From Eledone cirrhosa (taxonomy: Eukaryota): DNA of 42,668 nt. Made by a program: the position numbers and the translations under genes. A model generated the notes under the pieces. It saw only the letters and a list, made by a program, of their open reading frames with translations. It did not search any database and was not told the DNA's origin. The stretch is from contig CAXHJY010000208.1 of assembly GCA_964016885.1 (NCBI GenBank), positions 1-42,668 of the forward strand, in the 5' to 3' direction. Shown piece by piece: positions 4,292-42,668 of this stretch; position 1 is the first letter of the stretch, and each line of letters starts with the position of its first letter.

Positions 4292-4324
<33 letters not shown>

Positions 4325-4384
4325 AAATATTTAAAAAATAATGAATAAAACAATGAAACAGTTCCTTATATTAAACAAAAAAAG

Positions 4385-4538
4385 TTCATTATTTAACGAT
4401 CGTTTCTGGGATATATATGTGTTAGAATTGGCATGTATATTTAACAGATCTATGTACAAAATTATACAAAATTATACAAACTATCAAAATTAAATATACA
4501 TACCAACTCATATATATGCCGTCTTCAGAAATAATGAA
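4385..4538 (-). ncRNA. Mirror copy of the long-stem-II hammerhead in the inverted arm
   Basis: Reverse complement of 5629-5782. Confidence 0.75.
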
Positions 4539-4962
4539 ATATATTTATTGATAATAACAACAATTCAAAATTACAGGTCTGTTTGGGAACAGAGTTCAAA
4601 TTGACCAATGGAAACACAAAAAGTTTATACAGTTAGGTGTGTGTATATATGTAAGTAACTTCGTTCACAGATATGCATAAAAATATATGTTCACATGCAT
4701 ACGCATGCCGAAAAGATGTATGTAAATACAAAAATTCAGGGCTAATGTCTCTGTATGTTTATAATCTACAGATAAAATACATATACGCATATAAACATAT
4801 AAATATAAAAATAAATATATACACATTCATATACTCACACATATACATACATTCACACACACACGCGCATATACGCATGTGTTTATGTATATGTGTATGT
4901 ATATGTATGTATATATATATATATATATATATGTATATCGATGTATATTTTATATTTTACTT

Positions 4963-5010
<48 letters not shown>

Positions 5011-5628
5011 TTAATATTTTTCTTTTTTCTTTTTCTTTTTCTTTTTCTTTTTCTTTTTCTTTTTCTTTCTAAATTTATAGATACATTTATAAATAGGCAG
5101 TTTGCTGACACCAGTAAATACTGACTCTTCCCCCCCCCCCCCACCTACTTTCTGTATCTGGATCTAAATATGTGTGGCAGTGTTTATGTGCGCGCATTAA
5201 TGTCCATATGCTTATGATAATAGTATATACACATATATGTGTGTGTGAGTGTGTGTGTGTATGTATGTTCGTGGTTGTGTGTATGTTTATGCGTATATGC
5301 GCGTGTGTGTGTGAATGTATGTATATGTGTGAGTATATGAATGTGTATATATTTATTTTTATATTTATATGTTTATATGCGTATATATATTTTATCTGTA
5401 GATTATAAACATACAGAGACATTAGCCCTGAATTTTTGTATTTACATACATCTTTTCGGCATGCGTATGCATGTGAACATATATTTTTATGCATATCTGT
5501 GAACGAAGTTACTTACATATATACACACACCTAACTGTATAAACTTTTTGTGTTTCCATTGGTCAATTTGAACTCTGTTCCCAAACAGACCTGTAATTTT
5601 GAATTGTTGTTATTATCAATAAATATAT

Positions 5629-5782
5629 TTCATTATTTCTGAAGACGGCATATATATGAGTTGGTATGTATATTTAATTTTGATAGTTTGTATAATTTTG
5701 TATAATTTTGTACATAGATCTGTTAAATATACATGCCAATTCTAACACATATATATCCCAGAAACGATCGTTAAATAATGAA
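5629..5782 (+). ncRNA. Type I hammerhead ribozyme with ~115-nt stem II
   Basis: Stem I TTCATTATTT/AAATAATGAA; core CTGAAGA 5639-5645; long hairpin 5646-5760; GAAA 5761-5764; palindromic stem III CGATCG; GUU cleavage triplet ending 5772. Confidence 0.8.
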
Positions 5783-6061
5783 CTTTTTTTGTTTAATATA
5801 AGGAACTGTTTCATTGTTTTATTCATTATTTTTTTAATATTTTATCTTGACTCTGTATTCCGTTTATCTTTCACCGAAAGTGATTTTTCATTGCATCTCT
5901 TCTTTCCATGATATCCGGATTACATTGAGTTCTTCATACGGATTGGACACTACCGTAAACTCTTGGTAGATTTATCTACATATATATATATATATGTATA
6001 ATTCACTGGACTAATTGCTGACCTTGTGCCTAACGTAGAAACAATTATTACTATTATTATT

Positions 6062-12900: not shown

Positions 12901-12904
<4 letters not shown>

Positions 12905-13016: not shown

Positions 13017-13083
<67 letters not shown>

Positions 13084-13158
13084 ATTATGAAAATAATTAT
13101 GAAAAATTTCTATAATACGAAGAGGGTGTTTAAATCCAACACGCTCCAGTATTTTAAT

Positions 13159-13199
<41 letters not shown>

Positions 13200-13200
<1 letters not shown>

Positions 13201-13330
13201 TATTTAATATACAGATGGCTTCTATATTCGAAGGAATTCATCAGGAAAGCCCTTTCTATATTAACTATTGTATATACTCTGCTATGTATTGAGTACCTTC
13301 CTGTGGTTACCCCCGATTGAACCCGGGATA
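13200..13330 (+). mobile_element. Diverged, collapsed relative of the hairpin element at 15026-15226
   Basis: 13254-13330 is a diverged reverse complement of 15030-15105. Minus-strand CCTGATGAATTCCTTCGAAT remnant at 13226-13245. Confidence 0.65.
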
Positions 13331-13349
13331 CACACAAACATATATGTGT

Positions 13350-13596
13350 GTGTTAAGTATTTCCGTAAAAAATGTAAAGGAAAGAAGAGTGCTCTATGTA
13401 TAGTACAGAGCTATTTAGTTATATAATAAACAACACAATTTAATTATTCCATTACCAAAGGTTTCAGGAAACTCGACGATACTTACGGAGGCAATGTCCT
13501 ACCCTTTCATTAGATGAAATAGATAACTAACGTAAGGATCATCTGGTTACTTGAAACCTTTCGTAATGGAATAATTATATTGTGTTGTTTATTATG
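13350..13596 (-). mobile_element. Older hairpin-plus-tail element (arms ~13424-13487 and ~13531-13595; tail 13350-13423)
   Basis: Diverged inverted repeat; hammerhead fold on the minus strand; TAGAGCAC in the tail. Confidence 0.65.
13446..13520 (-). ncRNA. Type I hammerhead with mutated core (CUAAUGA), probably inactive
   Basis: Stem I ATTTCAT/ATGGAAT, CTAATGA, ~40-nt stem II region closed by AGG/CCT, GAAA, stem III CC-TTT-GG, GUA site. Confidence 0.6.
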
Positions 13597-13629
13597 TAAT
13601 ATTTATATATATATATATATATATATACA

Positions 13630-13664
<35 letters not shown>

Positions 13665-13667
<3 letters not shown>

Positions 13668-14555
13668 GGAGAATAGAAATGGCTGTGTATTTGCTATTTA
13701 AGGTAACTTAAAATGCAGTGGGAATAAGAAGAAAGCAAGAAAGAAGGAGGGGGTCCTCATCAGTTGTCTACTGTGGGTTTCGGATATTTCTACGCTTTAA
13801 AGACAAGATATCTCACCCCAGGGCGTCAATAACTGGATAAGTTATTGGGAAAACAGAGGAGGGAGGGAAGGAAAGCAAAAGGGAAGAAAAGAGAAAACAG
13901 TAACAAAACAGCGAAAAAACAACAAACCGAGCAATGTGCGAGGAATGTGCGGGCAATGTGCGAGCAACTTCAGTTAAAGTAATCCAAGACCACTCGATAA
14001 GAGAACTTAAGTTCAAGACTGAGTGGTCGAGAGGAACAAGACACACGTCTGATCGCCGCAGTTGTAAGTGAGAAAAGAACTGCTAAAGGGTCAGCCGAGG
14101 GGCTGAAAGAGAGAGGAAGAGAGTGGGGTAAGAGTAGATAGGGAGAAAGGGAGTGGAAGAAAGAGGGATGAGAGTAGAAAGTAGCGAAATAGGTAGGTAG
14201 AAGGGGAGAGAGAAGAATGGTCACAGCGAAAGCATGATGAAATATATGGAGAGTAGGAATGGTTGTGTAGTTGCTATTTAAGGTAACTTAAAATGCAGTG
14301 GGAATAAGAAGAAAGCTGGTTGCCCCACGGCCTCGGCGGACATAACGGAGAAGGCGTTCCCCCGGAGGATGGTAAGGGAGGTGCGCTGGAAGAACCATTC
14401 GATCTCGCGAGGCTCACACATGCGGCTAGCCAGCTCAGTGTCTAAGGTGGTAAGTAGGGAGGTAGCCCTAGGGCCAAAGACAGCAGAAGTCTCCACTGCT
14501 ATGGGCTCGACTGCAAATAGGTTAAAGAATGAAGTCTCAATAAGTTTCTCCTACT
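13665..14555 (-). mobile_element. 3' fragment of a CRE-like (restriction-like endonuclease) non-LTR retrotransposon
   Basis: Minus ORF reads PIAVETSAVFGPRA...EIEWFFQRTSLTILRGNA, matching the P.AVET.G..G / QR.S....RGNA C-terminal signature. A ~65-bp direct repeat lies at 13670-13737 and 14250-14316; the element ends at (TA)n. Confidence 0.65.
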
Positions 14556-14808
14556 GATCAATTCTTCCTGCCTAGTTATTCCTGTTTTTCCTAGTACCAT
14601 ACTTAATATTATTATAAATACTCTGTGATCTAATCCTTGGAAATTGTACCATAACCCCTTTACCTGGGTTCTCACCGTACACCTTGCAACGAACACGTCG
14701 AGAAAAATATTTGGTAAGCAATCATCCATATCTGTTTTGTTTGTGAATCTGATCTACACAAACCAAATTTAATGGGACTTATCTTCATGTATATATATAT
14801 ATATATAT

Positions 14809-15002
14809 ATAGGAACGAGTAGGACCCCGACGGCTGAGCTCAAGCCGTTTCGACGGCTAATTCAGTCCAGAATTAGCCGTCGAAACGGCTTGAGCTCAGC
14901 CGTCAGGGTCCTACTCGTTCCTATTACCCACTCTACTACCCTAAGTATTGAGTACTTTGGTGCGTTATGGTCCACCTGGTTCCTTACCACATTTCTTCCG
15001 TT
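14809..15002 (+). mobile_element. Hairpin-plus-tail element carrying the 3' half of a hammerhead
   Basis: Arms 14809-14862 and 14871-14923, 8-nt loop, tail 14924-15002. GAAA-CGGCT-tgagctc-AGCCG-TC forms stem III and a GUC site; CTGANGA is missing (truncated). Confidence 0.75.
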
Positions 15003-15025
15003 ATATATATATATATATATATATA

Positions 15026-15397
<372 letters not shown>

Positions 15398-17209: not shown

Positions 17210-17402
17210 GGAGAGGTGGATTGGCAGTATCGGTAGAGAGTCGGGCGCCATGCTTTCCAGCATAGTTACGTCCCTTTACAGTCTGAGTTCAAATCCCGTC
17301 GAGATTAACTTTGCCTTTCATCCTTACGGGGTCGATAAAATAAAGTACCAGTAATGTACTGGGGTAATTGCTGGCCTTGTGCCAAAAGTAGAAACAATTA
17401 TT
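17210..17402 (+). mobile_element. tRNA-derived SINE, same family as 6062-6326
   Basis: TGGCAGTATCGG ... GAGTTCAAATCCC ... shared body and 3' end. Confidence 0.85.
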
Positions 17403-17772
17403 ACTGTCAGACATCTTCACAGCCGCATTATAGAACATCTCAACACACCCACATCCTCCTTCAGGAAACACAAACAAATTCAAAATCAATAACAAAGACA
17501 TAACAGTTACCAGTGAAACCACGTGGGCAATATTAAAATCACGTGATACTAATAACTAAAGTTAATCCACAAATCATCAACAGATTAGTACTCAACATGC
17601 AATACTTACCAGAAAAGCGCACACACGTAACGTCTGACATAATACTGTGCACATGTATAATAGCCAACACCACACAGACAATTACAACTAGACACGAAGA
17701 TTTGGCACAAACACATACAGCCCAGACACATAGCTCAATCCAGAGTAGCTAACATCCAAACCGTTACAACTT

Positions 17773-17988: not shown

Positions 17989-19512
17989 GACACCACATTT
18001 GCATCGAAGAAACATTTGACATGAAGACATGAACACCACATTTGCATCGAAGAAACATTTGACATGAAGACATGAACACCACATTTGCATCGAAGAAACA
18101 TTTGACATGAAGGAAGACATGAACACCACATTTGCATCGAAGAAACATTTGACATGAAGGAAGACATGAACACCACATTTGCATCGAAGAAACATTTGAC
18201 ATGAAGACATGAACACCACATTTGCATCGAAGAAACTTTTGACATGAAGGAAGACATGAACACCACATTTGCATCGAAGAAACATTTGACATGAAGGAAG
18301 ACATGAACACCACATTTGCATCGAAGAAACATTTGACATGAAGACATGAACACCACATTTGCCTCGAAGAAACATTTGACAGGAAGACATGAACACCACA
18401 TTTGCATCGAAGAAACTTTTGACATGAAGGAAGACATGAACACCACATTTGCATCGAAGAAACATTTGACATGAAGGAAGACATGAACACCACATTTGCA
18501 TCGAAGAAACATTTGACATGAAGACATGAACACCACATTTGCCTCGAAGAAACATTTGACAGGAAGACATGAACACCACATTTGCATCGAAGAAACTTTT
18601 GACATGAAGGAAGACATGAACACCACATTTGCATCGAAGAAACATTTGACATGAAGGAAGACATGAACACCACATTTGCCTCGAAGAAACATTTGACAGG
18701 AAGACATGAACACCACATTTGCATCGAAGAAACATTTGACATGAAGGAAGACATGAACACCACATTTGCATCGAAGAAACATTTGACAGGAAGACATGAA
18801 CACCACATTTGCATCGAAGAAACATTTGACATGAAGGAAGACATGAACACCACATTTGCATCGAAGAAACATTTGACATGAAGGAAGACATGAACACCAC
18901 ATTTGCATCGAAGAAACATTTGACATGAAGGAAGACATGAACACCACATTTGCATCGAAGAAACATTTGACATGAAGACATGAACACCACATTTGCATCG
19001 AAGAAACATTTGACATGAAGACATGAACACCACATTTGCCTCGAAGAAACATTTGACATGAAGACATGAACACCACATTTGCATCGAAGAAACATTTGAC
19101 AGGAAGACATGAACACCACATTTGCATCGAAGAAACATATGACATGAAGACATGAACACCACATTTGCATCGAAGAAACATTTGACATGAAGACATGAAC
19201 ACCACATTTGCATCGAAGAAACATTTGACATTTGACATGAACACCACATTTGCCTCGAAGAAACATTTGACATTTGACATGAACACCACATTTGCCTCGA
19301 AGAAACATTTGACATGAAGGAAGACATGAACACCACATTTGCATCGAAGAAACATTTGACATGAAGGAAGACATGAACACCACATTTGCATCGAAGAAAC
19401 ATTTGACAGGAAGGAAGACATGAACACCACATTTGCATCGAAGAAACATTTGACAGGAAGACATGAACACCACATTTCCATCGAAGAAACATTTGACATG
19501 AAGACATGAACA
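17989..19512. repeat. 39/43-bp minisatellite (ACACCACATTTGCATCGAAGAAACATTTGACATGA[AGGA]AGACATGA)
   Basis: ~37 tandem units with a few recurring variants. Confidence 0.95.
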
Positions 19513-20745: not shown

Positions 20746-20974
20746 AAAGGTGAAAGATTTCGAGGAATGTTCGTGTTCCTTAGTCTTTATAAACTTACAA
20801 GCGATGAAATGAAGTTAGTTTGTTTCCAGACTGTTTATTTACTTATAAACATACGTGAAACTGCTGTAGTTTACATTGATGCTACACGTGTTAGTCAAAT
20901 ATGATTGAAGAATTTTGACTTCATTTACAAAGCTATTATTGTGTAGGTGTTAGTTGTTGTTGTTGTACAATCAA

Positions 20975-21125
20975 GGCGCGTGGCTTGGTAGTTAGGGTGT
21001 TCAGTTCACGATCATAAGGTCGGGTTTTCAATTATGGTAAAGGGTAGTGCATTGTGTCCTTGAGCAAGACACTTTATTCCAGATTGCTCCAGTCCATTCA
21101 GCTAGAAATAAATGAGTTGTACTCG
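20975..21125 (+). mobile_element. tRNA-derived SINE of a second family (degenerate)
   Basis: GGCGCGTGGCTTGGTAGTTAGGG head; GTGTCCTTGAGCAAGACACTT core shared with 24012-24292. Confidence 0.65.
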
Positions 21126-21577: not shown

Positions 21578-23652
21578 ATCGGTATAGAAATGGTGTCAGA
21601 ACAATATAACTTTAAACCTTGTGGCTTCATAATATCGGTATAGAAATGGTGTCAGAACAATATAACTTTAAACCTTGTGGCTTCATAATATCGGTATAGA
21701 AATGGTGTCAGAACAATATAACTTTAAACCTTGTGGCTTCATAATATCGGTATAGAAATGGTGTCAGAACAATATAACTTTAAACCTTGTGGCTTCATAA
21801 TATCGGTATAGAAATGGTGTCAGAACAATATAACTTTAAACCTTGTGGCTTCATAATATCGGTATAGAAATGGTGTCAGAACAATATAACTTTAAACCTA
21901 GTGGCTTCATAATATCGGTATAGAAATGGTGTCAGAACAATATAACTTTAAACCTTGTGGCTTCATAATATCGGTATAGAAATGGTGTCAGAACAATATA
22001 ACTTTAAACCTTGTGGCTTCATAATATCGGTATAGAAATGGTGTCAGAACAATATAACTTTAAACCTTGTGGCTTCATAATATCGGTATAGAAATGGTGT
22101 CAGAACAATATAACTTTAAACCTTGTGGCTTCATAATATCGGTATAGAAATGGTGTCAGAACAATATAACTTTAAACCTTGTGGCTTCATAATATCGGTA
22201 TAGAAATGGTGTCAGAACAATATAACTTTAAACCTTGTGGCTTCATAATATCGGTATAGAAATGGTGTCAGAACAATATAACTTTAAACCTTGTGGCTTC
22301 ATAATATCGGTATAGAAATGGTGTCAGAACAATATAACTTTAAACCTTGTGGCTTCATAATATCGGTATAGAAATGGTGTCAGAACAATATAACTTTAAA
22401 CCTTGTGGCTTCATAATATCGGTATAGAAATGGTGTCAGAACAATATAACTTTAAACCTTGTGGCTTCATAATATCGGTATAGAAATGGTGTCAGAACAA
22501 TATAACTTTAAACCTTGTGGCTTCATAATATCGGTATAGAAATGGTGTCAGAACAATATAACTTTAAACCTTGTGGCTTCATAATATCGGTATAGAAATG
22601 GTGTCAGAACAATATAACTTTAAACCTTGTGGCTTCATAATATCGGTATAGAAATGGTGTCAGAACAATATAACTTTAAACCTTGTGGCTTCATAATATC
22701 GGTATAGAAATGGTGTCAGAACAATATAACTTTAAACCTTGTGGCTTCATAATATCGGTATAGAAATGGTGTCAGAACAATATAACTTTAAACCTTGTGG
22801 CTTCATAATATCGGTATAGAAATGGTGTCAGAACAATATAACTTTAAACCTTGTGGCTTCATAATATCGGTATAGAAATGGTGTCAGAACAATATAACTT
22901 TAAACCTTGTGGCTTCATAATATCGGTATAGAAATGGTGTCAGAACAATATAACTTTAAACCTTGTGGCTTCATAATATCGGTATAGAAATGGTGTCAGA
23001 ACAATATAACTTTAAACCTTGTGGCTTCATAATATCGGTATAGAAATGGTGTCAGAACAATATAACTTTAAACCTTGTGGCTTCATAATATCGGTATAGA
23101 AATGGTGTCAGAACAATATAACTTTAAACCTTGTGGCTTCATAATATCGGTATAGAAATGGTGTCAGAACAATATAACTTTAAACCTTGTGGCTTCATAA
23201 TATCGGTATAGAAATGGTGTCAGAACAATATAACTTTAAACCTTGTGGCTTCATAATATCGGTATAGAAATGGTGTCAGAACAATATAACTTTAAACCTT
23301 GTGGCTTCATAATATCGGTATAGAAATGGTGTCAGAACAATATAACTTTAAACCTTGTGGCTTCATAATATCGGTATAGAAATGGTGTCAGAACAATATA
23401 ACTTTAAACCTTGTGGCTTCATAATATCGGTATAGAAATGGTGTCAGAACAATATAACTTTAAACCTTGTGGCTTCATAATATCGGTATAGAAATGGTGT
23501 CAGAACAATATAACTTTAAACCTTGTGGCTTCATAATATCGGTATAGAAATGGTGTCAGAACAATATAACTTTAAACCTTGTGGCTTCATAATATCGGTA
23601 TAGAAATGGTGTCAGAACAATATAACTTTAAACCTTGTGGCTTCATAATATC
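21578..23652. repeat. Highly homogeneous 56-bp tandem satellite, ~37 copies
   Basis: Unit ATCGGTATAGAAATGGTGTCAGAACAATATAACTTTAAACCTTGTGGCTTCATAAT; I saw only one variant (T>A at 21900). Confidence 0.97.
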
Positions 23653-23888
23653 AACAGAAACCATTTTGTTTTTGTGTTTTTTCTAACTTTTCATTGTTTT
23701 CCTTTTCAATGACGAACTCATGGATTGTGACTTTATATTTGAACACTCGCCAAAAACAGGAAAAGTCTCTTTATTTTATTTCTATAGTTTTTTTTTAGAG
23801 AGAGAAAGAGGAAAATGAGAATTGCTTCTTTGTTTAGTTGATAATTTAAAAGAAAATCCTCTTTTATTAGAATGTATTATATATATAT

Positions 23889-23986
23889 AGGTTAATTTTG
23901 CCTTTCATCCTTACGGGGTCGATAAAATAAAGTACCAGTAATGTACTGGGTAATTGCTGGCCTTGTGCCAAAAGTAGAAACAATTA
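23889..23986 (+). mobile_element. 5'-truncated SINE, same family as 6062-6326
   Basis: Body and 3' end match 17303-17400. Confidence 0.8.
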
Positions 23987-24011
23987 TATATATATATATA
24001 TATATCTAAAA

Positions 24012-24292
24012 AAGTCTAAAGTCTGTCTTAAGCCAGAAGGCTCATTTGGCCGCTGCTTATCCCGTTTTCATGGCGTGAAGTGACTGAGAGTACAAGACTC
24101 CCCCTGGACAGGACGCCAGTCCATCGGAGGGTTAGACCTCCAGCTATTGCTGGTACCCATTTTCAGGTGAGTATACTGGAGCAACGTGAAATGAAGTGTC
24201 TTGCTCAAGAAAACAACACACAACCCAGGAATCGAACCCACGACATTATGATCGTAATTCCAACACCCTTACCACTAGGGCACGTGCCTCCA
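24012..24292 (-). mobile_element. Full-length tRNA-derived SINE (MetaSINE-like central domain)
   Basis: Minus strand: TAGTGGTAAGG A-box, GGTTCGATTCC B-box, CTTGAGCAAGACACTT, AATGGGTACC...GATGGACTGGCGTCCTGTCCAGGGG, short repeat tail. Confidence 0.75.
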
Positions 24293-24293
24293 T

Positions 24294-24325
<32 letters not shown>

Positions 24326-25348
24326 TAAACAAATAATGAATAAACAATTCCTTATATTAAACAAAAAAATTCATTATTTAACGATCGTTTCTAGGGTATA
24401 TATGTGTTATAATTGGTATGCATATTCAACAGATCTATGTACAAAATTATACAAAATTATACAAATTATCAAGATTAAATATACATACCTAACACATATA
24501 TACGCCGTCTTCAGAAATAATGAAGTATATTTATTGATAATAACAACAATTCAAAATATCAGTTCAAAATTGACCAATGAAAATACAAAGGGTTAAAAGC
24601 AGTTCGGTGTGTGTATATACATGTAAAATCCTTACACATATTTTACAAAAATGTGTGTATAATTTGTATACGCATACTAAAAAGATGGATGCAAACACAA
24701 AATTTCAAGGTTAATATCTCTGTAAGCTTAATGCGCTGATAAGATGCGCATTGATACTTATGGAGTCAAGCATATAAATATATTTTTTCATACTCACACA
24801 TATCAGTATAATCACACATACATGCGCGTATATGCATAAATATACACATAACCACGAACATACAAACACACACACTCCCCCACTCACATTTATATATGTG
24901 GATATAAAATCATAAGCACATAGAAATTAAATCACTCACATAAAACACTGGCACACACATTTCAAGATCAAGATACAGAAATTAGGTGGGAGGGGGGGAG
25001 GGGTCAGTATTCAATTGTCTGAGCAGACTGCCTAATATAAATGTATCTATAAATTAAGAAAAATAAAAAAATAAAACAATAAAATATAATAACTATAATA
25101 TAATATATATACACATACAGATATATAAACACACATACATACATGTACGCACACATAGAGATATTTACGCATACACACATACACACATACATATACAGTC
25201 ATACACACACATACACTTACACGAACATACACATACACATATAAAAAGATATATATATACACACACACACACACGCGCAACACATACACACATACACATA
25301 TATATAAAAAAATAGATAATAAAGATATATATCCATATATATATACAT

Positions 25349-25399
<51 letters not shown>

Positions 25400-25490
25400 C
25401 ATATACATATACATACACATACATCTAAATATACATACACATACATACACACATACATGTACATACATGTACATACATATACGCACATCG

Positions 25491-25534
<44 letters not shown>

Positions 25535-25878
25535 TCACATAGACATATAGATACATACACACACAATTTACATACACACGTATATATATATATATATATA
25601 GATGTACCTTCATACATAGAATTAGATATATAATCATACATACATATGCACCTACTTATACTCATATATATAAATACATACGCTTCCATAAATGTGTATA
25701 TACATAAAAAACAATACAACCTCACCAAACTCAGACATACAAATAAAGATAATAATAAAAAATAATAATAAAAAGGCATATGTATATACATACACACACG
25801 CATTAATAGAGATATATATATATATATACACATACATACACATATATATATACATACACACACATATATACACACACA

Positions 25879-25930
<52 letters not shown>

Positions 25931-25936
25931 TAGACT

Positions 25937-25968
<32 letters not shown>

Positions 25969-26425
25969 AACATATATATCCACACACACATACCACCATA
26001 AAAACACATACAAACACCCACATGTATATATATATATACATATATATCCATATACACACACGTACATATATATACATATATATACATACATATATATATA
26101 TACACACACACATAAAAAACAGACATGCACATATATATATATATATATATATTTTATTACTCTTATATATACACATATTATATATACATACACAACCTCA
26201 CTTATACACATATACACATAAGTTATATTATAATAATAAAGAATAATATACATATATATATATACACATATACATATATATATATATATATATATACATA
26301 CATACATACACATACATACATACACATAAATATATACATACATAAATACATACATACTAATAAAGACATATATTCACACATAGACACCTATATATATATA
26401 TATATATATATATCTATATATATAT

Positions 26426-26467
<42 letters not shown>

Positions 26468-27488
26468 ACACACACACACACACACAGACACACATACACA
26501 CTCACATATATATATATATATATGTGTATGTGTGTGTGCGCACATACACATATATACAAACACACATACAAACACACACAAACACATACATATGCATACG
26601 TGCACACACACACACATATATCACATAGATACGAAGATAAACATATAAATAGAGAGACATACATATATATACACAACACACATACACATACATACATACA
26701 CGCATATACATATACATACATATATACACATATATATATTCATATATATACAAGCATACACATACATACACATATATACACATACATACACATATACATA
26801 CAACACATTCACATACACACACATATATAATGCATATATATACATATATATACATACATATGTATGTACAATCATATATACACACACAATCTTACATTCA
26901 TATTTGCATGCTCATATATGTATTTTTATATTTAGATATAAATACCCAAACCTATATAGACACCCACCTACATATATATTCATACATAGACGCTTACAAA
27001 TACAGATGATAATAGTATGGGGGAAAGGGGGGGTTTGGAGAAGGGGATCAAAGTAAATATATGTTTCAAGAAACATATAATATTTTCCGTATCTTAATTC
27101 AATGTATGTTCTTACATATTTTCAGTGCTAGGAAATACGAAATCTATGCATCTCAAAATAAATAAGTATACCATTAATCATATGTTAACTAAACCAAAGA
27201 TAGCCAACATATTGATTTCTAAGGTGTAAATTAGTTAGGTTTATAATATTTGAAGCAGAATTTTGAAGTCAAACAGTAGTAGATTATTAATTACAGTATA
27301 ACTAAATTAAAGTTAATAACGTTATGGTATCAATATTAGGAGATGAATTTAGTAATAGGGAAAAGAAACCCAAATAAAAATAAAATAAAGTATTACATCG
27401 GTAGTAGCATATAAATTATATGTTAACTAAATTAAAAATTATATATTTATTTCAATAGTATACGTTAATTAGTATATGTTAACTCTAG

Positions 27489-28550
27489 ATAGTATATGAA
27501 GCTCTAGATAGAAGTGGCCACAAAAATAGATTAGAGTATATACCTTCTACTAAAAATACTGAAAGCATACAGCATAATATTACCAACAAACACCAAATGA
27601 AAAGTACACACCTAAATGCCACCCACAATATACCCCAAAATACTAAATCTTCTAATATAAAGTATAGTAACCCTCAAAAAACTACTCATCATACAACTAT
27701 AATAAATATTAATAATAAAACTCCTAATAAAAAAGATAAAACACCTAAATCTACAAATATAACTAAAAATAGTTGTGGTGAGATCATTAACATTAATCCT
27801 CCTAGTAAAAATCATGATACAACCTATAAAAATAATAAAAATAATAAACAACATAGAAACCGTAATAGACGAGTTACTTGGTATAATGCTCCTTTTAATT
27901 TACAAGTTAAGGATAATATTGCTAAAAAATTTTTTTATATCCTTGAGAAAAACTTCCCGCCAAACCACAAATACCATCAAATCTTAAATAGGTCTACAGT
28001 TAAATTCTCATACTCTACAACAAATAACATAAAACAAAATATAAGTGCATATAATGCATATAAATGCAAGAAAACCATAAGTATACCACCAGTACATCAA
28101 ATTAACAATAATATCTCCTCAAATACAGAATTAACGAAAGGATGTAACTGTAGAAACAAAACAAACTGCCCATTAAAAGGGAATTGTCTTGTTAACAACA
28201 TAGTCTATAAATGTAATGTTAAAACTAAAGATTCTATTTGCTCATATATAGGAGCTACCTCTAACAATTTTAAGACAAGGTTTAATACCCACAAGCATAG
28301 TTTTAAAAATGCCGCACTGGCTAATACAACATCTCTAGCAGAAAAAATCAATAGTTATAAAAATAAGAATATAAAATATGATTTGACCTGGAGTGTGCTC
28401 AAAAGAGCCACCCCTTATCAAAATAATAGAAAGGAATGTAGATTATGTTCCCAAGAACTATTTGAAATAATGAAGTCTAAGGATATCTTATTAAATAAAC
28501 GACAGGAATTAATTATATCGTGTAATCATAAACTAAAAAAAAACATTTAA
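27489..28550 (+). CDS. C-terminal part of PLE polyprotein: end of RT thumb, N/K/T-rich linker, Cys motif and GIY-YIG endonuclease (5'-truncated)
   Basis: Frame is open upstream of Met 27597 and reads YEALDRSGHKNRLEY. It continues with RRVTWYNAPF, CNC...CPLKGNC, IVYKC...YIGAT..FKTRFNTH, CRLC..E and LLNKRQE. Confidence 0.88.
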   Translation: MVYEALDRSGHKNRLEYIPSTKNTESIQHNITNKHQMKSTHLNATHNIPQNTKSSNIKYSNPQKTTHHTTIININNKTPNKKDKTPKSTNITKNSCGEIININPPSKNHDTTYKNNKNNKQHRNRNRRVTWYNAPFNLQVKDNIAKKFFYILEKNFPPNHKYHQILNRSTVKFSYSTTNNIKQNISAYNAYKCKKTISIPPVHQINNNISSNTELTKGCNCRNKTNCPLKGNCLVNNIVYKCNVKTKDSICSYIGATSNNFKTRFNTHKHSFKNAALANTTSLAEKINSYKNKNIKYDLTWSVLKRATPYQNNRKECRLCSQELFEIMKSKDILLNKRQELIISCNHKLKKNI

Positions 28551-29104
28551 ATATTATAAACCTAATTAATAACATTATTCTAGAAATTAATTTAATTTAA
28601 ATGTTAGTTAACCTATAAATTTAATTTAATTAATATTTTATTACAGATGAGAAAATATTATGTAATCATAAATTGTGAAAAACCTTTAAATATTACTAAT
28701 ATATACTTAGTAATTTAATTTATAGATTAATTTTAATTTATTTAAACCTTTTATTATAATTCTTTTACAGATAAAATATAGCAAAATAATATCATGTTTC
28801 CAATGACGGAGAAATAATTTTTAGTATTATAGACATAATTAATATACATTTTGGAAATATATTTATTATTTGGTTTTAGTTTTAATCAACCTAAAAATTT
28901 TAATTTTAATTTGCTTAAAATTAGTATCCTTATACAGACGAATTGCAGAATGTCATGTAATCATAGAATGGGATGTGTTTTGGATATATACCTAGTTAAT
29001 ATATTCTGTGCAATTTTTTGAAAAAGATATGTATATGTATATGTGTATGTATATGTGTGTGTTATGTATGTGTATCTGTATGTATGTATGTATGTGTATA
29101 TGTG

Positions 29105-29151
<47 letters not shown>

Positions 29152-30459
29152 ATATGTATGTATATGTGTATGTGTATGTATATGTATATGTATGCGTATT
29201 ATTTTGATTTCTATTTGCATATAATTATATTATGCTATTGATGAAATACAATATCTGCTTTATGTATTGTATACCTAGTTAACATATACTAATTAACGTA
29301 TACTATTGAAATAAATATATAATTTTTAATTTAGTTAACATATAATTTATATGCTACTACCGATGTAATACTTTATTTTATTTTTATTTGGGTTTCTTTT
29401 CCCTATTACTAAATTCATCTCCTAATATTGATACCATAACGTTATTAACTTTAATTTAGTTATACTGTAATTAATAATCTACTACTGTTTGACTTCAAAA
29501 TTCTGCTTCAAATATTATAAACCTAACTAATTTACACCTTAGAAATCAATATGTTGGCTATCTTTGGTTTAGTTAACATATGATTAATGGTATACTTATT
29601 TATTTTGAGATGCATAGATTTCGTATTTCCTAGCACTGAAAATATGTAAGAACATACATTGAATTAAGATACGGAAAATATTATATGTTTCTTGAAACAT
29701 ATATTTACTTTGATCCCCTTCTCCAAACCCCCCCTTTCCCCCATACTATTATCATCTGTATTTGTAAGCGTCTATGTATGAATATATATGTAGGTGGGTG
29801 TCTATATAGGTTTGGGTATTTATATCTAAATATAAAAATACATATATGAGCATGCAAATATGAATGTAAGATTGTGTGTGTATATATGATTGTACATACA
29901 TATGTATGTATATATATGTATATATATGCATTATATATGTGTGTGTATGTGAATGTGTTGTATGTATATGTGTATGTATGTGTATATATGTGTATGTATG
30001 TGTATGCTTGTATATATATGAATATATATATGTGTATATATGTATGTATATGTATATGCGTGTATGTATGTATGTGTATGTGTGTTGTGTATATATATGT
30101 ATGTCTCTCTATTTATATGTTTATCTTCGTATCTATGTGATATATGTGTGTGTGTGTGCACGTATGCATATGTATGTGTTTGTGTGTGTTTGTATGTGTG
30201 TTTGTATATATGTGTATGTGCGCACACACACATACACATATATATATATATATATGTGAGTGTGTATGTGTGTCTGTGTGTGTGTGTGTGTGTGTATGTG
30301 TGTATATATATATATATATATATGTATGTATATATATATATAGATATATATATATATATATATATATAGGTGTCTATGTGTGAATATATGTCTTTATTAG
30401 TATGTATGTATTTATGTATGTATATATTTATGTGTATGTATGTATGTGTATGTATGTAT

Positions 30460-30491
<32 letters not shown>

Positions 30492-30792
30492 GTGTATATA
30501 TATATATGTATATTATTCTTTATTATTATAATATAACTTATGTGTATATGTGTATAAGTGAGGTTGTGTATGTATATATAATATGTGTATATATAAGAGT
30601 AATAAAATATATATATATATATATATATATGTGCATGTCTGTTTTTTATGTGTGTGTGTATATATATATATGTATGTATATATATGTATATATATGTACG
30701 TGTGTGTATATGGATATATATGTATATATATATATACATGTGGGTGTTTGTATGTGTTTTTATGGTGGTATGTGTGTGTGGATATATATGTT

Positions 30793-30824
<32 letters not shown>

Positions 30825-30830
30825 AGTCTA

Positions 30831-30882
<52 letters not shown>

Positions 30883-31226
30883 TGTGTGTGTATATATGTG
30901 TGTGTATGTATATATATATGTGTATGTATGTGTATATATATATATATATCTCTATTAATGCGTGTGTGTATGTATATACATATGCCTTTTTATTATTATT
31001 TTTTATTATTATCTTTATTTGTATGTCTGAGTTTGGTGAGGTTGTATTGTTTTTTATGTATATACACATTTATGGAAGCGTATGTATTTATATATATGAG
31101 TATAAGTAGGTGCATATGTATGTATGATTATATATCTAATTCTATGTATGAAGGTACATCTATATATATATATATATATACGTGTGTATGTAAATTGTGT
31201 GTGTATGTATCTATATGTCTATGTGA

Positions 31227-31270
<44 letters not shown>

Positions 31271-31361
31271 CGATGTGCGTATATGTATGTACATGTATGT
31301 ACATGTATGTGTGTATGTATGTGTATGTATATTTAGATGTATGTGTATGTATATGTATATG

Positions 31362-31402
<41 letters not shown>

Positions 31403-32227
31403 ATGTATATATATATGGATATATATCTTTATTATCTATTTTTTTATATATATGTGTATGTGTGTATGTGTTGCGCGTGTGTGTGTGTGTGTATATATAT
31501 ATCTTTTTATATGTGTATGTGTATGTTCGTGTAAGTGTATGTGTGTGTATGACTGTATATGTATGTGTGTATGTGTGTATGCGTAAATATCTCTATGTGT
31601 GCGTACATGTATGTATGTGTGTTTATATATCTGTATGTGTATATATATTATATTATAGTTATTATATTTTATTGTTTTATTTTTTTATTTTTCTTAATTT
31701 ATAGATACATTTATATTAGGCAGTCTGCTCAGACAATTGAATACTGACCCCTCCCCCCCCTCCCACCTAATTTCTGTATCTTGATCTTGAAATGTGTGTG
31801 CCAGTGTTTTATGTGAGTGATTTAATTTCTATGTGCTTATGATTTTATATCCACATATATAAATGTGAGTGGGGGAGTGTGTGTGTTTGTATGTTCGTGG
31901 TTATGTGTATATTTATGCATATACGCGCATGTATGTGTGATTATACTGATATGTGTGAGTATGAAAAAATATATTTATATGCTTGACTCCATAAGTATCA
32001 ATGCGCATCTTATCAGCGCATTAAGCTTACAGAGATATTAACCTTGAAATTTTGTGTTTGCATCCATCTTTTTAGTATGCGTATACAAATTATACACACA
32101 TTTTTGTAAAATATGTGTAAGGATTTTACATGTATATACACACACCGAACTGCTTTTAACCCTTTGTATTTTCATTGGTCAATTTTGAACTGATATTTTG
32201 AATTGTTGTTATTATCAATAAATATAC

Positions 32228-32382
32228 TTCATTATTTCTGAAGACGGCGTATATATGTGTTAGGTATGTATATTTAATCTTGATAATTTGTATAATTTTG
32301 TATAATTTTGTACATAGATCTGTTGAATATGCATACCAATTATAACACATATATACCCTAGAAACGATCGTTAAATAATGAA
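32228..32382 (+). ncRNA. Type I hammerhead with ~115-nt stem II (mirror copy on minus strand at 24370-24524)
   Basis: Stem I TTCATTATTT/AAATAATGAA, CTGAAGA 32238-32244, GAAA 32361-32364, CGATCG, GUU site. Confidence 0.8.
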
Positions 32383-32566
32383 TTTTTTTGTTTAATATAA
32401 GGAATTGTTTATTCATTATTTGTTTAATATTTTATCTTGACTCTGTATACCGTTTGTCTTTCACCGAAAGTGGATTTTCATTGCATCTCTTCTTTCCATG
32501 ATATCCGGAATACATTGAGTTCTTCATACGGATTGGACACTACCGTAAACTCTTGGTAGATTTATC

Positions 32567-32569
<3 letters not shown>

Positions 32570-32614
<45 letters not shown>

Positions 32615-32644
32615 AAACTCATAAACACATACACTTTTATATAC

Positions 32645-32677
<33 letters not shown>

Positions 32678-32795
32678 CATATATATATACATATATATAT
32701 ATACATATATATATACATATATATATATATACATATATATATACAATATATATACATATATACATATATAAATATATACATATATAAATATATAC

Positions 32796-32830
<35 letters not shown>

Positions 32831-32839
32831 CATATATAA

Positions 32840-32872
<33 letters not shown>

Positions 32873-32873
32873 A

Positions 32874-32912
<39 letters not shown>

Positions 32913-32973
32913 TATACATATATATATATATATACATATATAAATATATACATATATATATATATATATATAA

Positions 32974-33004
<31 letters not shown>

Positions 33005-33043
33005 CATATATAAATATATATATATATATATATACATATATAA

Positions 33044-33074
<31 letters not shown>

Positions 33075-33170
33075 CATATATAAATATATACATTTATATA
33101 TATATACATATATAAATATATACATTTATATATATATACATATATAAATATATACATTTATATATGTATA

Positions 33171-33203
<33 letters not shown>

Positions 33204-36810: not shown

Positions 36811-37532
36811 CATTTGAGAGACATAGACTCGGTTTGGATACTCCTGTCGTCCGTCATTTCCGTTCCCTGGTCACTCCTCCCTACATGTCTGTCCGGGGTG
36901 TCCTTTTACATCACGAATCACAGGCCTCGTGCACCAGGACTGAACAGAGTCTGATTTACCGCCTTGGGTCCTGTCTTCCTCATGGACTCAACTCCTCCCA
37001 TCTCCAATTTCTTTAATACGTTAATTCGTTATCACATACGCGCTTGTACATTCACCCCGAGATTCCTATCGTTCCCTCTTGATCATAAACATATTCTCTT
37101 ACAACTAATACAGACAGACAAAACACGCACACTCCACTTTTCCCTACACTGCTCTGTATAAACACATACACGCCCTTATATTAACATACCTTTGCTCATA
37201 GCTTCGTACTTACATGCACACACGCATTCTTTTACTTACATATGCACACACATATCCTCTTAGCTTCGCACGGTCGTATAATAACACACACAGACACACA
37301 CACGCATACGCACGCGCTCAAGTATAGCGCTTTTTACAAAACGGTTGTTTTCCATTCCAGGTAGACGCGCTCCATCATCCATTTTTCTAAAAAAAAATAT
37401 ATCATACACAAAACGCCAGTACCAACAGTCTTCCAGGAGATGAGAACATGAATGGGCCTGTTATTTTTATCTAAAGACATTTTTTCCAATTCCACCCCGC
37501 CCGTCCCTTCAATCTTTCTAATTCTCATTCTT

Positions 37533-37568
37533 TCTTCTGATGAAGGACTAGCGTCCGAAACGTTAAGA
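37533..37568 (+). ncRNA. Minimal type I hammerhead (dimer-type, palindromic stem III)
   Basis: TCTT-CTGATGA-A-GGAC-TAGC-GTCC-GAAA-CG-TT-AAGA. Confidence 0.72.
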
Positions 37569-37655
37569 CTATCTTCCTGCTATTTCAAGCGTTAACCTAA
37601 TATATTCCTTCCATATACTGTACCGATTGTGTTGTTATTTCTGTTTACCTTTTAC

Positions 37656-37750: not shown

Positions 37751-38272
37751 CATGGTGGTGGTTGCCAACTCGTTTTCGAGTACGGCCACTACTTTATATC
37801 CATGTAGGAGAACCCCTACCGATGCGCTGAACGAGTGTGACTTTTTAGTCCAGCCAGCGACTTGAAAACTCTGGTACAAACACTACACTTGCGACAATTA
37901 TTGACACATAGTGCTGGGCCCATGGTACCATGTGACGACAAGTGCAGAGAGATCTCCAGATATAAAGCAATGCCTGTGCCGTGAAGCTTTTATAGTGAGC
38001 AAAGGCACTGCACAAAGCCAGTCCCACTCTCTTAACCAAGATGATATTTACCAAAAAGAAGAACAAGTCAACATCATTGGATACCATCAGGGTTGCAGGT
38101 GTTATATCAGAGTTTTCCTTCTCCTAGAATTCTGCCTTGACAAAGGCTAAGGGGTCATCTCTCCCGGTGATTTTGGATGGCCATTGACTCTTAAGAGCTC
38201 CTTTGCCCTTTGACAGGTTTTGTTTTTAGTCCTGCAGGATGTCCAAAGTCACCCTCCTCACCAAGAAACCTT
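37751..38272 (-). mobile_element. Non-autonomous RTE-like element, copy 2 (5'-shorter)
   Basis: Matches 3400-3908 with small indels; long (TATG)n tail at 37657-37752. Confidence 0.65.
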
Positions 38273-38299
38273 GTGTGTGTGTGTGTGTACAATGTCAAT

Positions 38300-38475
38300 A
38301 ATACATGCTTTGCAGCATAGAGTTACGGCCCTTTATGATCCGAGTTCAAATCCCGCCGAGGTTAACTTTACCTTTCATCCTTACGAGGTCGATAAAATAA
38401 AGTACTAGTCACGTACTGAGGTCGATTTAATTGACTTACAAATTGCTGGTCTTGTGCCTAGAAAAGAAACCATTA
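38300..38475 (+). mobile_element. SINE, same family as 6062-6326
   Basis: GAGTTCAAATCCCGCCGAGGTTAACTTT...GTCGATAAAATAAAGTAC. Confidence 0.8.
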
Positions 38476-38565
38476 TATATATGTATGCGCTATTCAACTC
38501 AACATAGCTCCCAAGAAAAATAACCTCAATTTGTTTGAACATATTCCTCCCTGTACCAGTTATAT

Positions 38566-39049: not shown

Positions 39050-39322
39050 TAATAATAATTGTTTCTACTTTTGGCACAAGGCCAGCAATGATCCCAGTAC
39101 ATTACTGGTACTTTATTTTACCAACCGCGTAAGGATGAAAGGCAAAGTTAACCTCGGCGGGATTTGAACTCAGACCATAAAGGGCTGTAGCTCGATGCTG
39201 CAAAGCAAGGCGTCCGACCCTCTACCGATACTGCCAATCCACCGCCCTTACTAGTAATAATAATTGTTTCTACTTTTGGCACAAGGCCAGCAATTATCCC
39301 AGTGCATTACTGGTACTTTATT
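39050..39322 (-). mobile_element. SINE (39050-39248) plus adjacent 3' fragment (39253-39322)
   Basis: Reverse complement of the 17210-17402 family. Confidence 0.85.
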
Positions 39323-40717: not shown

Positions 40718-42620
40718 GGGTATGACATTAAACTACATCCAGTGGCAAGGCTCCAGTTCGGGAGTTCAGGAAATGTGGGGAATGTGGAGTTACCCCTTAG
40801 TTGTCATAACTCCCAGGTCTGCCCTGGCCCGGGGTGGTAGTACCTGTTAGGGCTCCATTTATGGGTTAAATAAGTACCTTCGAGTGGCGCCGGTAAGGTA
40901 TTGTCAGCCATTGAAAAGAAATATGGAGAGTCGATCTAACAGTACTAGGGTTAGAGCCCCTAATTACACTGTCAAGGAGCAGCCTGGTCGTTATGACTCT
41001 GCTGGCTTAGAGCCACAGAGAGGGCCAGTGGATGATGGATCAGCTGTCTCTGAGACAAATATAAAGAATGCAGTTTTGTCCTGCAGAAGAGCCATCAAAA
41101 TCGGCACTTTGAATGTGAGGACTATTCGAACGCTGGAGAAGAGAGAGGAGTTGGGACATCTGTTCGAGGAGAGTGGTATACAGATACTTGCGATCCAAGA
41201 ACACAGGATTCTACACGATGAGCCCGTGAGGAGTGTGATGATCGGGAGGAAGAGCCAGCTCATCACTACATCGGCAGTGAAGAACACAACAAATGCTGCC
41301 TGCAGTAGGAGGAGTGGGTTTTGTGTTCAGTGCAAAAACCAATCTGTTGGTGAGGGAAATAATGCCTATCTCCCCGCGAGTGTTGAGGGTGACCTTCAAT
41401 GGAAACCCAAGACTGACAGTCATCTCAGCCTATAGTCCAACCGAGGGGGACAGTGATGTGAATGCCGAGGAGTTCCATGAGGAGGTGTGTAGAGCTGTCA
41501 ACACCACTCAGGCACACAATATCCTGCGTGTTTTGGGGGACTTCAATGCACATCTGAGTAAGAAGGGCAGTGAAGATCCTTGCTGGTACTTCCATAACAA
41601 CACCAACCGAAATGGAAGACTACTGAGAGACACCCTGCTGGAGGCGAACTTGATGACGACCAACCTAAGGTTTAGGAAGAATCTGGGGAAGATGTGGACC
41701 TACATCTCAGATATGCACCTGTCCAAGTCCCAGATTGATTTCATTCTGGTGAGGAAAAAGTGGCGGAATAGTGTTCTGAACACGGAACCATACAGCTATT
41801 TCAGTACACTGGGTAGTGACCACCGGCTTGTTATGAGTGAGGTCCGTGTGAGCTTAAGAAAGAGCAAGGCTCAGCCCCGGAGAACAATCTATGACTGGGG
41901 AGCTTTCAAGGAAGATGATAAGCTACAGGAGAGGTTCACAGTGGAAGTGAGAAACAGGTTTAGTGCTCTGTGTGGAGAGTCAGAGGAGAGAGAGATTGGA
42001 TGGACTGAGGAGAGTGTGACGAGGAGGTACGGGCACTTCACCAATGCAGTGGCGAAAGCAAGTGAAACCCTGGTGCCGAGGAAAAAGAACAAAGGGAAGC
42101 ACGTCAGCTCTGCAAACCCAAAAGTGTGTGCAGCCAGAGAACACCTGAAAGCTGCCAGGGACCAATTCTATGCTGATCCTACGGAGGAGAGGATGGAGAC
42201 TGTGGAGGTGATGAGGGAAGAGCTCTGTACCGCTTACACTGAGGTCAGAGAGGAGGCACTGATAGAGAAGATCAGAAGTGTGGAGGGAGCGGTTGACAGA
42301 TCTGGATGTAAGGAGAGCTGGATGATCATCAACGAGATCACAGGGAGGAAGAAAAGGTGTTCGAGTCAGATCCAGGGAACGGGGCCCGAGGATAGGAAGA
42401 GGAAATGGCTAGACCATTTTAGGACCCTACTAGGAGAGCCACCCTCCACAGCCCAGAGCACTGGGGAGATCAGGCGGCTGTTTGAGGAACTGGATGTTGA
42501 GACAGAGCCCTTCACCAGAGAGGAGCTTCAGAGAGCCAAGAAGAAGATCAAGGAGGGCAAGGCTCATGGAGAGGATGGAGTGGCATCAGAGGTGATGAAG
42601 AGGTGTGATTTTGATGATAT
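40718..42620 (+). mobile_element. APE-endonuclease LINE (RTE-like), 5' portion; frameshifted and ending in (TA)n before the RT core
   Basis: IGTLNVRT, LAIQEHR, frameshift near 41300, then GGVGF, AYSPT, LGDFNAHL, NRNG, QIDFILV, SDHRLV, and finally KAHGEDGVASE; putative 5' UTR 40718-40922. Confidence 0.88.
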
Positions 42621-42631
42621 ATTATATATAT

Positions 42632-42668
<37 letters not shown>

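Follow-up and report, generated by a model that had tools for sequence, protein, structure and literature searches.

A young Hydra-type Penelope-like insertion in Eledone cirrhosa, probably a 5'-truncated copy joined to the mirror image of its own long 3' end

Organization of the insertion

The window analysed here is a 42,668-nucleotide stretch of Eledone cirrhosa DNA (NCBI GenBank assembly GCA_964016885.1, contig CAXHJY010000208.1, positions 1 to 42,668, forward strand), which carries at 24317-32569 an 8.2-kb insertion with an open reading frame (ORF) for a GIY-YIG endonuclease between two long inverted arms (Table 1). Taken together, the data make it probable that this insertion is a young, 5'-truncated copy of a Hydra-type Penelope-like element (PLE) joined to the mirror image of its own long 3' end. 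A first-pass annotation, made from the letters alone, had described the ORF within near-identical arms of about 3.2 kb, which the alignment bore out: the left arm (3,168 bp) and the reverse complement of the right arm (3,159 bp) agree at 3,154 positions, with no substitution and 5 indels, all of them confined to a G run or to (TA)n. Arm divergence has a 95% upper bound of 0.001 (0 substitutions in 3,154 sites) and the insertion is therefore young, unless gene conversion has evened out the arms.

The two ends of the insertion are unequal. The left arm begins immediately after a (TA)n tract, while the right copy extends 134 bp beyond the counterpart of the left arm, as far as an (AT)n tract. What separates the arms is a filler (11 nt), the ORF and a further 726 bp of 3' sequence. 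At both insertion ends, a target-site duplication is indistinguishable from the flanking microsatellite.

Table 1. Coordinates of the main insertion, its motifs and the other insertions of the same layout in the window.
Feature	Position	Strand	Evidence or remark
(TA)n target tract, left	24294..24316	.	sequence; closes a repeat like the 3' end of a short or long interspersed nuclear element (SINE/LINE)
Left arm: inverted, 5'-truncated copy of the 3' region, without tail	24317..27484	-	match to 29277-32435; outer end shared with insertion B
Mirror hammerhead motif	24370..24524	-	descriptor scan
Junction filler, 11 nt	27485..27495	+	two nearby repeats; loose contig ends on both sides
ORF remnant: end of the reverse transcriptase (RT) thumb, Asn/Lys/Thr-rich linker, CxCX5C, GIY-YIG endonuclease with CxxC and CxH	27496..28550	+	
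Linker from thumb to pre-endonuclease region, 119 amino acids (aa), 20% Asn	27522..27878	+	
CxCX5C linker motif	28143, aa 219-227	+	definition in the cited passage of PMC8557442
GIY-YIG residues	VY 28203, YIG 28245, Arg 28278, His 28290, Glu 28455, Asn 28494	+	conserved columns
CxxC and CxH around the conserved Glu and Asn	28437 and 28521, aa 317-347	+	in 149 of 181 returned proteins
3' non-coding region, 4,019 bp	28551..32569	+	
Right arm: direct copy, part of the 3' region	29277..32435	+	arm alignment
Type I hammerhead motif	32228..32382	+	descriptor scan, folding, shuffles
One-sided tail, 134 nt	32436..32569	+	96.3% identical tail with matching end points in insertion B
Bulged hairpin in tail	32440..32520	+	conserved across Hydra-type elements
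(AT)n target tract, right	32570..32601	.	sequence
Sister insertion B	4322..5979		inverted arm 4322-4878 (-), direct copy to 5979 (+), in (TA)n; no ORF left
Hammerhead of B	5629-5782		
Tail of B, 134 nt	5846-5979		
Insertion C (second family)	15028-15225		short canonical Hydra-type hammerhead on both arms, cores 15165 (+) and 15153 (-); 67-nt tail at left
Insertion C' (family of C)	about 13203-13330		head-to-head
Insertion D (third family)	14812-15001		54-bp arm pair, 77-nt tail
Insertion D' (family of D)	12903-13016		left arm as in D, last part of tail only; arm and tail not overlapping
Insertion E, older	about 13346-13600		arms of about 69 bp with several substitutions; left tail with the G-C form of the hairpin

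The ORF and its clade assignment

The ORF (27489-28550) runs for 353 codons from stop to stop, and for 317 aa from the ATG at 27597. At E<=0.001, 6,547 cluster representatives are related to its protein, which shares 39% identity over 228 aa with a 702-aa protein that has both RT and endonuclease. All 31 returned relatives longer than 600 aa present the RT motif Y[RK]DD; DK[TS] was found in 29 of the 31 and an RW[KR]-like motif, within the first 60 aa, in 21. The signatures given for the RT of the Hydra clade are RWK, DKT and no IFD (PMC8557442; here and below, published systems are described from the cited passages of the papers named). Pfam yielded for 22 long homologues sub-cutoff matches alone, to RVT_1 (2) and GIY-YIG (2), and a protein homology search gave one longer and three near-length relatives at 35-40%, none from this family. 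The model of the endonuclease (aa 121-353, predicted local distance difference test score 84) matches I-TevI with a Z score of 8.9 and a root-mean-square deviation of 2.3 over 89 residues, and also T4 EndoII (Z 7.3) and UvrC (Z 6.0), the best structural matches thus all being GIY-YIG nucleases.

The insertion exhibits every testable defining feature of the Hydra clade of endonuclease-bearing (EN+) PLEs, namely a C-terminal GIY-YIG domain after the RT thumb, CxCX5C, CxxC/CxH, no CCHH finger, a type I hammerhead in the terminal region and insertion into (TA)n; CxCX5C, CxxC, CxH and the missing CCHH finger are the clade marks listed in PMC8557442. This placement rests on the endonuclease and the terminal features, the RT being absent from this copy. 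The total length typical of Hydra elements, below 3 kb, is exceeded: the direct copy alone measures 5,074 bp although it lacks the RT.

The clades named in the first-pass annotation (Neptune, Nematis, Poseidon) did not hold, the endonuclease being of the Hydra type. The CCHH finger of Neptune, Nematis and Penelope-Poseidon is lacking, as is the CX2-5CxxC linker of Neptune and Nematis; between its VY and YIG strands the endonuclease has no CxxC, and the two Cys found there, 9 residues apart, are not conserved columns. Naiad and Chlamys have an N-terminal endonuclease, whereas here it comes after the thumb and forms the end of the ORF. Identity with Hydra-1_Obim was also rejected, since the endonuclease and 3' sequences plainly differ in a by-eye comparison.

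The absence of stops had been taken as a sign of a young insertion. Youth agrees with the arms; the ORF is not quite intact, as the last codons are out of frame at a run of nine A (28535-28543), which has one A more than in relatives. Contigs of 4/4 sequencing runs include forms with one A fewer, and the alternative frame after the run yields the C-terminus of the closest protein relative (P0003). The extra A is either a real change or a homopolymer error. Among the 22 ORF differences listed, beside 130 further rows, 14 are synonymous, 13 fall at third positions and none alters a conserved Cys or a catalytic residue, which indicates that the family ORF has been under purifying selection.

The inner junction and the loss of the RT

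Words near-identical to this stretch are present in runs under several organism labels (17 listed holders), and contigs from 4 of these runs were aligned to 27000-29015. The results are contig pieces and loose ends, and the junction counts refer to those listed, beside 1,763 other pieces and 186 other loose ends. In 3/4 runs (X1, X4 and X5; three organism labels, two studies) contigs diverge before 27496/27498 and, translated by eye, run in frame as V-F-D-K-N-A-T-F-Y-N before E-A-L-D-R. This continuation is in register with the thumb helix of full-length homologues, the counterpart in Hydra-1_Obim being F-D-A-A-A-P-A-Y-N-E-A-L. Other copies thus continue in frame into the RT thumb, and the insertion is a 5' truncation, as first proposed, and not an RT-less unit; this is how the refuting test named in the first-pass annotation came out. 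On the other side of the junction, contigs of X1 and X4 depart from the left arm after 27482 and then match right-arm sequence.

Because contigs of other copies continue into the thumb there, the body of the element starts at about 27496, after the filler, and not at 27485. The Tyr of 'YEALD' straddles the junction, at which other copies have Y-N-E (by-eye translation). The 10-nt duplication seen at first, at 27483 and 27502 (7e-5 expected by chance within 60 nt), was confirmed; the body start inferred with it was displaced, and a second repeat, of 9 nt at 27470 and 27490 (1.5e-3 expected within the same distance), had been missed. The filler was likely templated in two hops, from 27502-27511 in the body and from 27470-27478 at the arm end. 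Repeats borrowed from the sides of a junction are the pattern of microhomology-primed repair synthesis. Using six long homologues in a tblastn search, we found no RT remnant elsewhere in the window.

An RT-less unit, or a DNA transposon with giant terminal inverted repeats (TIRs), expressing a solo 317-aa GIY-YIG nuclease would account for the catalytic residues and the ATG at 27597, and stand-alone endonucleases beside Terminons are on record (PMC8557442). We consider it very improbable, since other copies continue into the thumb, the junction (27484/27496) is bridged by none of the contig pieces listed from the four runs, and the layout recurs with quite different arm lengths in insertion B and in the small insertions of the window. 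A TIR transposon in particular was rejected, in agreement with the first-pass annotation: the only ORF is that of a PLE endonuclease, and the ends, unequal by the 134-nt tail, and the hammerhead fit a retroelement.

A stand-alone 317-aa nuclease, which had been thought possible, is probably not expressed from the Met at 27597, because this Met lies inside the low-complexity linker and both element ends appear to point away from the ORF. With the promoter in the outward-facing terminal regions, as in other PLEs, nothing of the element would drive the ORF. A read-through RNA of the insertion would fold into a 3.2-kb duplex. There are no RNA runs among the listed holders of the stretch, which says nothing on expression. 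Its RT lost, this copy is probably a dead end.

Tail, fixed end points and sister insertions

Insertion B, whose arms are identical at 555/557 positions (2 substitutions), aligns to the main insertion with 75-83% identity upstream of the hammerhead, 93% in the hammerhead and 96% in the tail. Its left arm and its 134-nt tail end on bases identical to those of the main insertion, and both ends of both insertions adjoin (TA)n. As B shares these ends, the 134 bp belong to the element, which has two defined 3' end points, and an artefact is unlikely. The outer end of the left arm would correspond to a first RT start site and the tail end (32569) to a second.

An assembly artefact, in which a fold-back chimera or a collapsed repeat made the inverted arm, might be read from zero substitutions over 3.15 kb in one assembly, all the more as such structures trouble assemblers (PMC8557442). 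Against this, the arms differ by the 5 indels, their flanks differ, 1.8 kb of unique sequence separates them, the junction filler is templated, and the left arm ends on the same base as that of B, with its two arm substitutions. We therefore attach hardly any weight to this explanation.

Related elements were compared in 78 metagenome-contig loci of the Hydra type (best 80 of 343 relatives), which fall into 59 clusters at 88% identity; the shortness of the contigs leaves long 3' regions under-represented among them. In the related loci L041, L003/L004/L006 and L014/L015/L022 the leader sequence recurs in the tail, L041 having both. The 134-nt tail thus appears to be where the 5' leader of a following unit starts, in a tandem or read-through RNA. 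No ORF start like a Hydra N-terminus was found in the six frames of 32100-32569, and a 23-nt tail pattern had no match in metagenome contigs.

The window holds five further small insertions (C, C', D, D' and E in Table 1) of three other families, with inverted arms and a one-sided tail, in or beside (TA)n. C' was dropped as evidence on priming, its left arm aligning to C over 14 nt only. The arms of D and D' present no hammerhead core, and Rfam gave no match on 12850-15320. Separately, the contigs of loci L037, L038 and L060 open with an inverted copy of an ORF-internal stretch (54-132 bp, 98-100%), which suggests the same inverted truncated structure in other hosts.

The 3' region and its hammerhead

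The 3' non-coding region, estimated at about 4 kb and called unusually long in the first-pass annotation, measures 4,019 bp. Alternating purine-pyrimidine microsatellite makes up 32% of 28551-32569 and 57% of 29771-31660. Contigs of 4/4 runs cover 28551-29015 and 29277-29761 (28 to 30 of 30 bins), so that the first 1.2 kb of the region, the microsatellite 29016-29276 excepted, is common to other copies. The last 0.9 kb (31667-32569) is common to insertion B, which aligns only from about 31667 on.

It is conceivable, but we think unlikely, that the 4-kb region is host DNA captured by one source copy, an explanation compatible with our preferred one. In Pen1_Av of Adineta vaga, unique spacers of 0.9-1.5 kb stand before the 3' pseudo-long terminal repeat (pLTR; PMC3846280), and here the middle 1.9 kb is the microsatellite-rich part and B aligns from beyond it. 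On the other hand, the two stretches covered in all four runs, from which loose ends follow the right arm, are not those of one copy, and a descriptor scan of the 3' region found no hammerhead nearer the stop. The spacer is also 2-4 times longer than that of Pen1_Av, at least partly common to copies and rich in microsatellite.

The hammerhead, 3,688 nt beyond the ORF stop, has a stem I of 10 bp, a complete core at 32238, a stem II of 116 nt and a palindromic stem III, with a predicted cut after 32372. It folds with z = -7.2 (0/200 shuffles), and an equal hit, with a 10-bp stem I, was found in 0/2,000 shuffles of the block. In B it is kept with one two-sided and three one-sided pair-keeping changes in stem II, one broken pair and one gap; the closing pair of stem II is G-U in the main insertion and G-C in B. 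Stem III is typically palindromic in PLE hammerheads, for which activity as dimers has been proposed (PMC4209133). The present motif is a putative self-cleaving one.

In the comparison set, the first 700 nt after the ORF end contain a hammerhead in 32/59 clusters; its distance is 60-534 nt (median 138) and its stem II measures 10-25 nt. Among the other 27, 17 have less than 300 nt downstream or no ORF end, four have a core at 86-291 nt and six have no hammerhead core in 305-2,970 nt downstream. A stem II of 135 nt at locus L061 was rejected as false pairing, its hammerhead being short. On 23500-33200, Rfam gave microsatellite-driven sub-cutoff miRNA matches and no hammerhead among 150 of 189 rows listed; the long stem II is thus a hammerhead form not reported here by the Rfam scan.

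A bulged hairpin in leaders and tails

The tail contains a hairpin whose lower stem has 4 bp, whose 3' side carries a 2-nt bulge and whose upper stem is unconstrained in sequence. One 7-mer has all six of its window occurrences in tails, and three unrelated tails share a 7-mer in 177/20,000 shuffles. The interior of the hairpin is 69 nt in the main element versus 7-12 nt in C and D, and the 134-nt tail is long because its hairpin encloses these 69 nt.

In related loci the hairpin starts 88-132 nt ahead of the estimated ORF start. A strict descriptor found it in 14/40 leaders versus 1/40 reversed leaders, 66/8,000 shuffles and 1/311 ORF windows, and its sequence anchors are present in 32/40 families with a leader of at least 140 nt, versus 2/40 on the reverse strand and 254/8,000 shuffles. 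Pairs were counted on the anchor-selected rows; a count on the descriptor-selected rows, where pairing had been imposed, is not relied on. Among the 32, the outer pair forms in 30, the first upper pair in 30 (17 U-A, 13 C-G) and the second in 27. With the 2-nt bulge, 79/96 cells are paired, versus 21-41/96 in four other registers. Most relatives, and E, have G-C as the outer pair; the main insertion, B, C, C' and D have A-U. In 12 loci the hairpin lies 37-55 nt past the hammerhead cut. By eye, Hydra-1_Ajap also has it, at its 5' start, as do Hydra-2_Ajap and Hydra-2_Amil in their 3' ends. As a separate observation, the leaders of L004, L006, L036 and L072 have a second, similar hairpin after the first, shortly before the ORF start.

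In the 16 of the 78 loci that were scanned, Rfam gave no match at the gathering score. A description of the hairpin was not found in the searchable literature, which for PLE tails and stem-loops yielded PMC11167929 alone from 2021 on and outside which most subscription papers, Repbase, Dfam and bioRxiv supplements may describe it or the family; no searchable paper contains both 'Penelope' and its 8-letter 3' strand, and the passages of PMC7229834 and bioRxiv 10.64898/2026.07.22.740005 have no bearing on it. The hairpin is predicted, from its conservation and position, to be the binding site by which the RT-endonuclease sets start sites.

Proposed mechanism of insertion

LINE-1 inverts its 5' ends by twin priming, both cut ends priming on the RNA and the products being joined via microhomology. 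LINE-1 inversions duplicate no sequence, whereas here the second priming would lie near the 3' end, so that 3.2 kb are duplicated. Among PLEs, a purified Poseidon protein was shown to cut both strands of AT-rich DNA and to extend them, starting at two internal RNA sites that bound a tail (PMC11167929). By analogy, the insertion likely arose by twin priming, in which both strands cut in (TA)n served as primers at two fixed RNA start sites. The GIY-YIG endonuclease would cut both strands of the tract; one free end would start copying at 32569 and reach the RT thumb after 5,074 nt, and the other would begin at 32435, 134 nt further upstream, for a copy of 3,168 nt. Microhomology-driven repair would then join the two truncated copies head to head, leaving the 11-nt templated filler. 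Both start sites would be set by the tail hairpin, bound by the RT-endonuclease protein.

Fold-back copying of one cDNA is the main rival to twin priming. The first cDNA, stalled at the thumb, would have annealed by its end to its own sequence and been extended by 3.2 kb along its own strand, the resulting hairpin being resolved at 32435. Self-priming has been proposed for inverted Penelope structures (PMC3846280), the arms carry no substitution, the filler borrows from both junction sides, and the tail-less arm of the main insertion, like that of B, nowhere reaches beyond the span of its tail-bearing partner. Twin priming is favoured by D', in which the inverted arm and the partial tail do not overlap, impossible for one cDNA copied back on itself, and by the two-site priming on both strands shown in vitro for a relative (PMC11167929). 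Fold-back copying would moreover need a separate reason for the arm ending on one base in both the main insertion and B, and we judge it improbable. The same shared base is poorly explained by the single template switch of the first-pass annotation and is explained by twin priming.

Several points weigh against our interpretation as a whole. The structure is known from one assembly, with no read or contig seen to span the insertion, and the searches yielded no full-length member of the family, its nearest protein relative being a 161-aa fragment at 60%. Foldseek returned nothing at E<=0.001 (best rows T4 EndoII and I-TevI) and Pfam no family in the ORF. As regards the truncation, about 30 letters of each loose contig end are visible, and the support for a shared 3' region comes from the stretches on either side of its microsatellite-rich middle (29762-31660). 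Zero arm substitutions also fit gene conversion or fold-back copying, D' might be a symmetric insertion whose centre was lost later, and the biochemical model derives from another clade (Poseidon). The hairpin was found after the fact and is not evident by eye in Hydra-1_Obim; 8/40 leaders lack its anchors, one or two of the 32 hits look misregistered (L002, L029), and the tail as a whole folds weakly (z -1.4 to -2.5).

Comparison with known systems

In its workings the element is like a canonical EN+ PLE, and head-to-head inverted truncated copies with a one-sided tail are already known (PMC8557442, PMC3846280). The Hydra clade, to which Hydra-1_Obim and Penelope-13_HM belong, shares with it a type I hammerhead close to the 3' end in which stem II is flanked by one extra base on either side, and the listing for Penelope-13_HM gives an inverted, 5'-truncated copy at the 5' end of that element (PMC8557442). 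The Hydra families listed there are 1,080-3,045 bp in total, less than the 3' non-coding part alone here. Stem II is 116 nt versus 10-25 nt in related families, the linker 119 aa versus 21-73 aa in all 61 homologues having both flanking motifs, and the tail 134 nt versus the 30-40 bp given for PLEs.

In Poseidon PAc of Anolis carolinensis (PMC11167929), two fixed end points bound a tail, the target is AT-rich and a hammerhead stands beside the end, as here. The start sites of PAc lie inside the ORF start, in an AC-rich stem-loop, whereas the tail here seems to be a non-coding leader with a different conserved hairpin; PAc was assayed in vitro, whereas the present element, of another clade, is known from sequence alone. 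The Penelope elements of Adineta vaga (PMC3846280) resemble ours in their inverted pLTRs, one-sided tail and 5'-junction microhomology, and Pen2a has Asn-rich RT-EN insertions; the inverted arm here copies 3.2 kb, versus a pLTR of about 200 bp. An octopus repeat annotation counts 31 recently active Penelope-like families, with no structural detail in the cited passage (PMC13282606). The novelty lies in how large the 3' region, stem II and the tail are, and in the hairpin conserved in leader and tail.

Other features of the window

The main insertion stands in (TA)n at the end of one of several SINE/LINE-end-like repeats (24030-24292, 23889-23988, 6001-6328, 17215-17403, 38304-38476, 39053-39309 and 20974-21109), and another such repeat follows B. 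A broken LINE-like ORF at 40851-42640 has apurinic-endonuclease-like motifs (by eye), one frame change and (TA)n at its end. Hammerhead-like cores at 37537 (+) and 7132 (-) lie in a pair of 84-bp repeats, 82% alike (37519-37602, 7150-7067). The positions 3403-3908 and 37757-38273 form a direct repeat pair of 517 bp, 96% identical. The AT/AC microsatellite load of the window is like that of octopus genomes. There are also two tandem arrays, one of a 56-bp unit (21578-23652; 37.1 copies, 99% matches, no indels), which is very young or collapsed, and one of 43/47 bp (17990-19512; about 34 copies, 93% matches), which is open in all three minus-strand frames.

Significance

Tandem and inverted PLE structures are named as unexplained in PMC8557442, and the one in vitro study on how PLEs choose their RT start sites and make inverted ends with a one-sided tail is of a single Poseidon element (PMC11167929). 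A short hairpin with covarying pairs, lying between two putative start sites in many Hydra-type families, offers a precise mutation target for such an assay, and natural variants with large hairpin inserts show which parts are dispensable. The 8.2-kb structure, an extreme yet ordinary product of its class, warns against misfiling such insertions as TIR transposons.

Tentatively, and at somewhat less than even chances, we propose that Hydra-type elements share a clade-wide leader hairpin, bound to set two flanking RT starts, and that twin priming in (TA)n builds the arms. The present family would have enlarged every spacer (the 4-kb 3' region, the 116-nt stem II, the 69-nt hairpin insert and the 119-aa linker) while keeping the cores. 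If this is true, each jump would copy kilobases of microsatellite DNA into microsatellite targets, adding to the simple-repeat load of the host.

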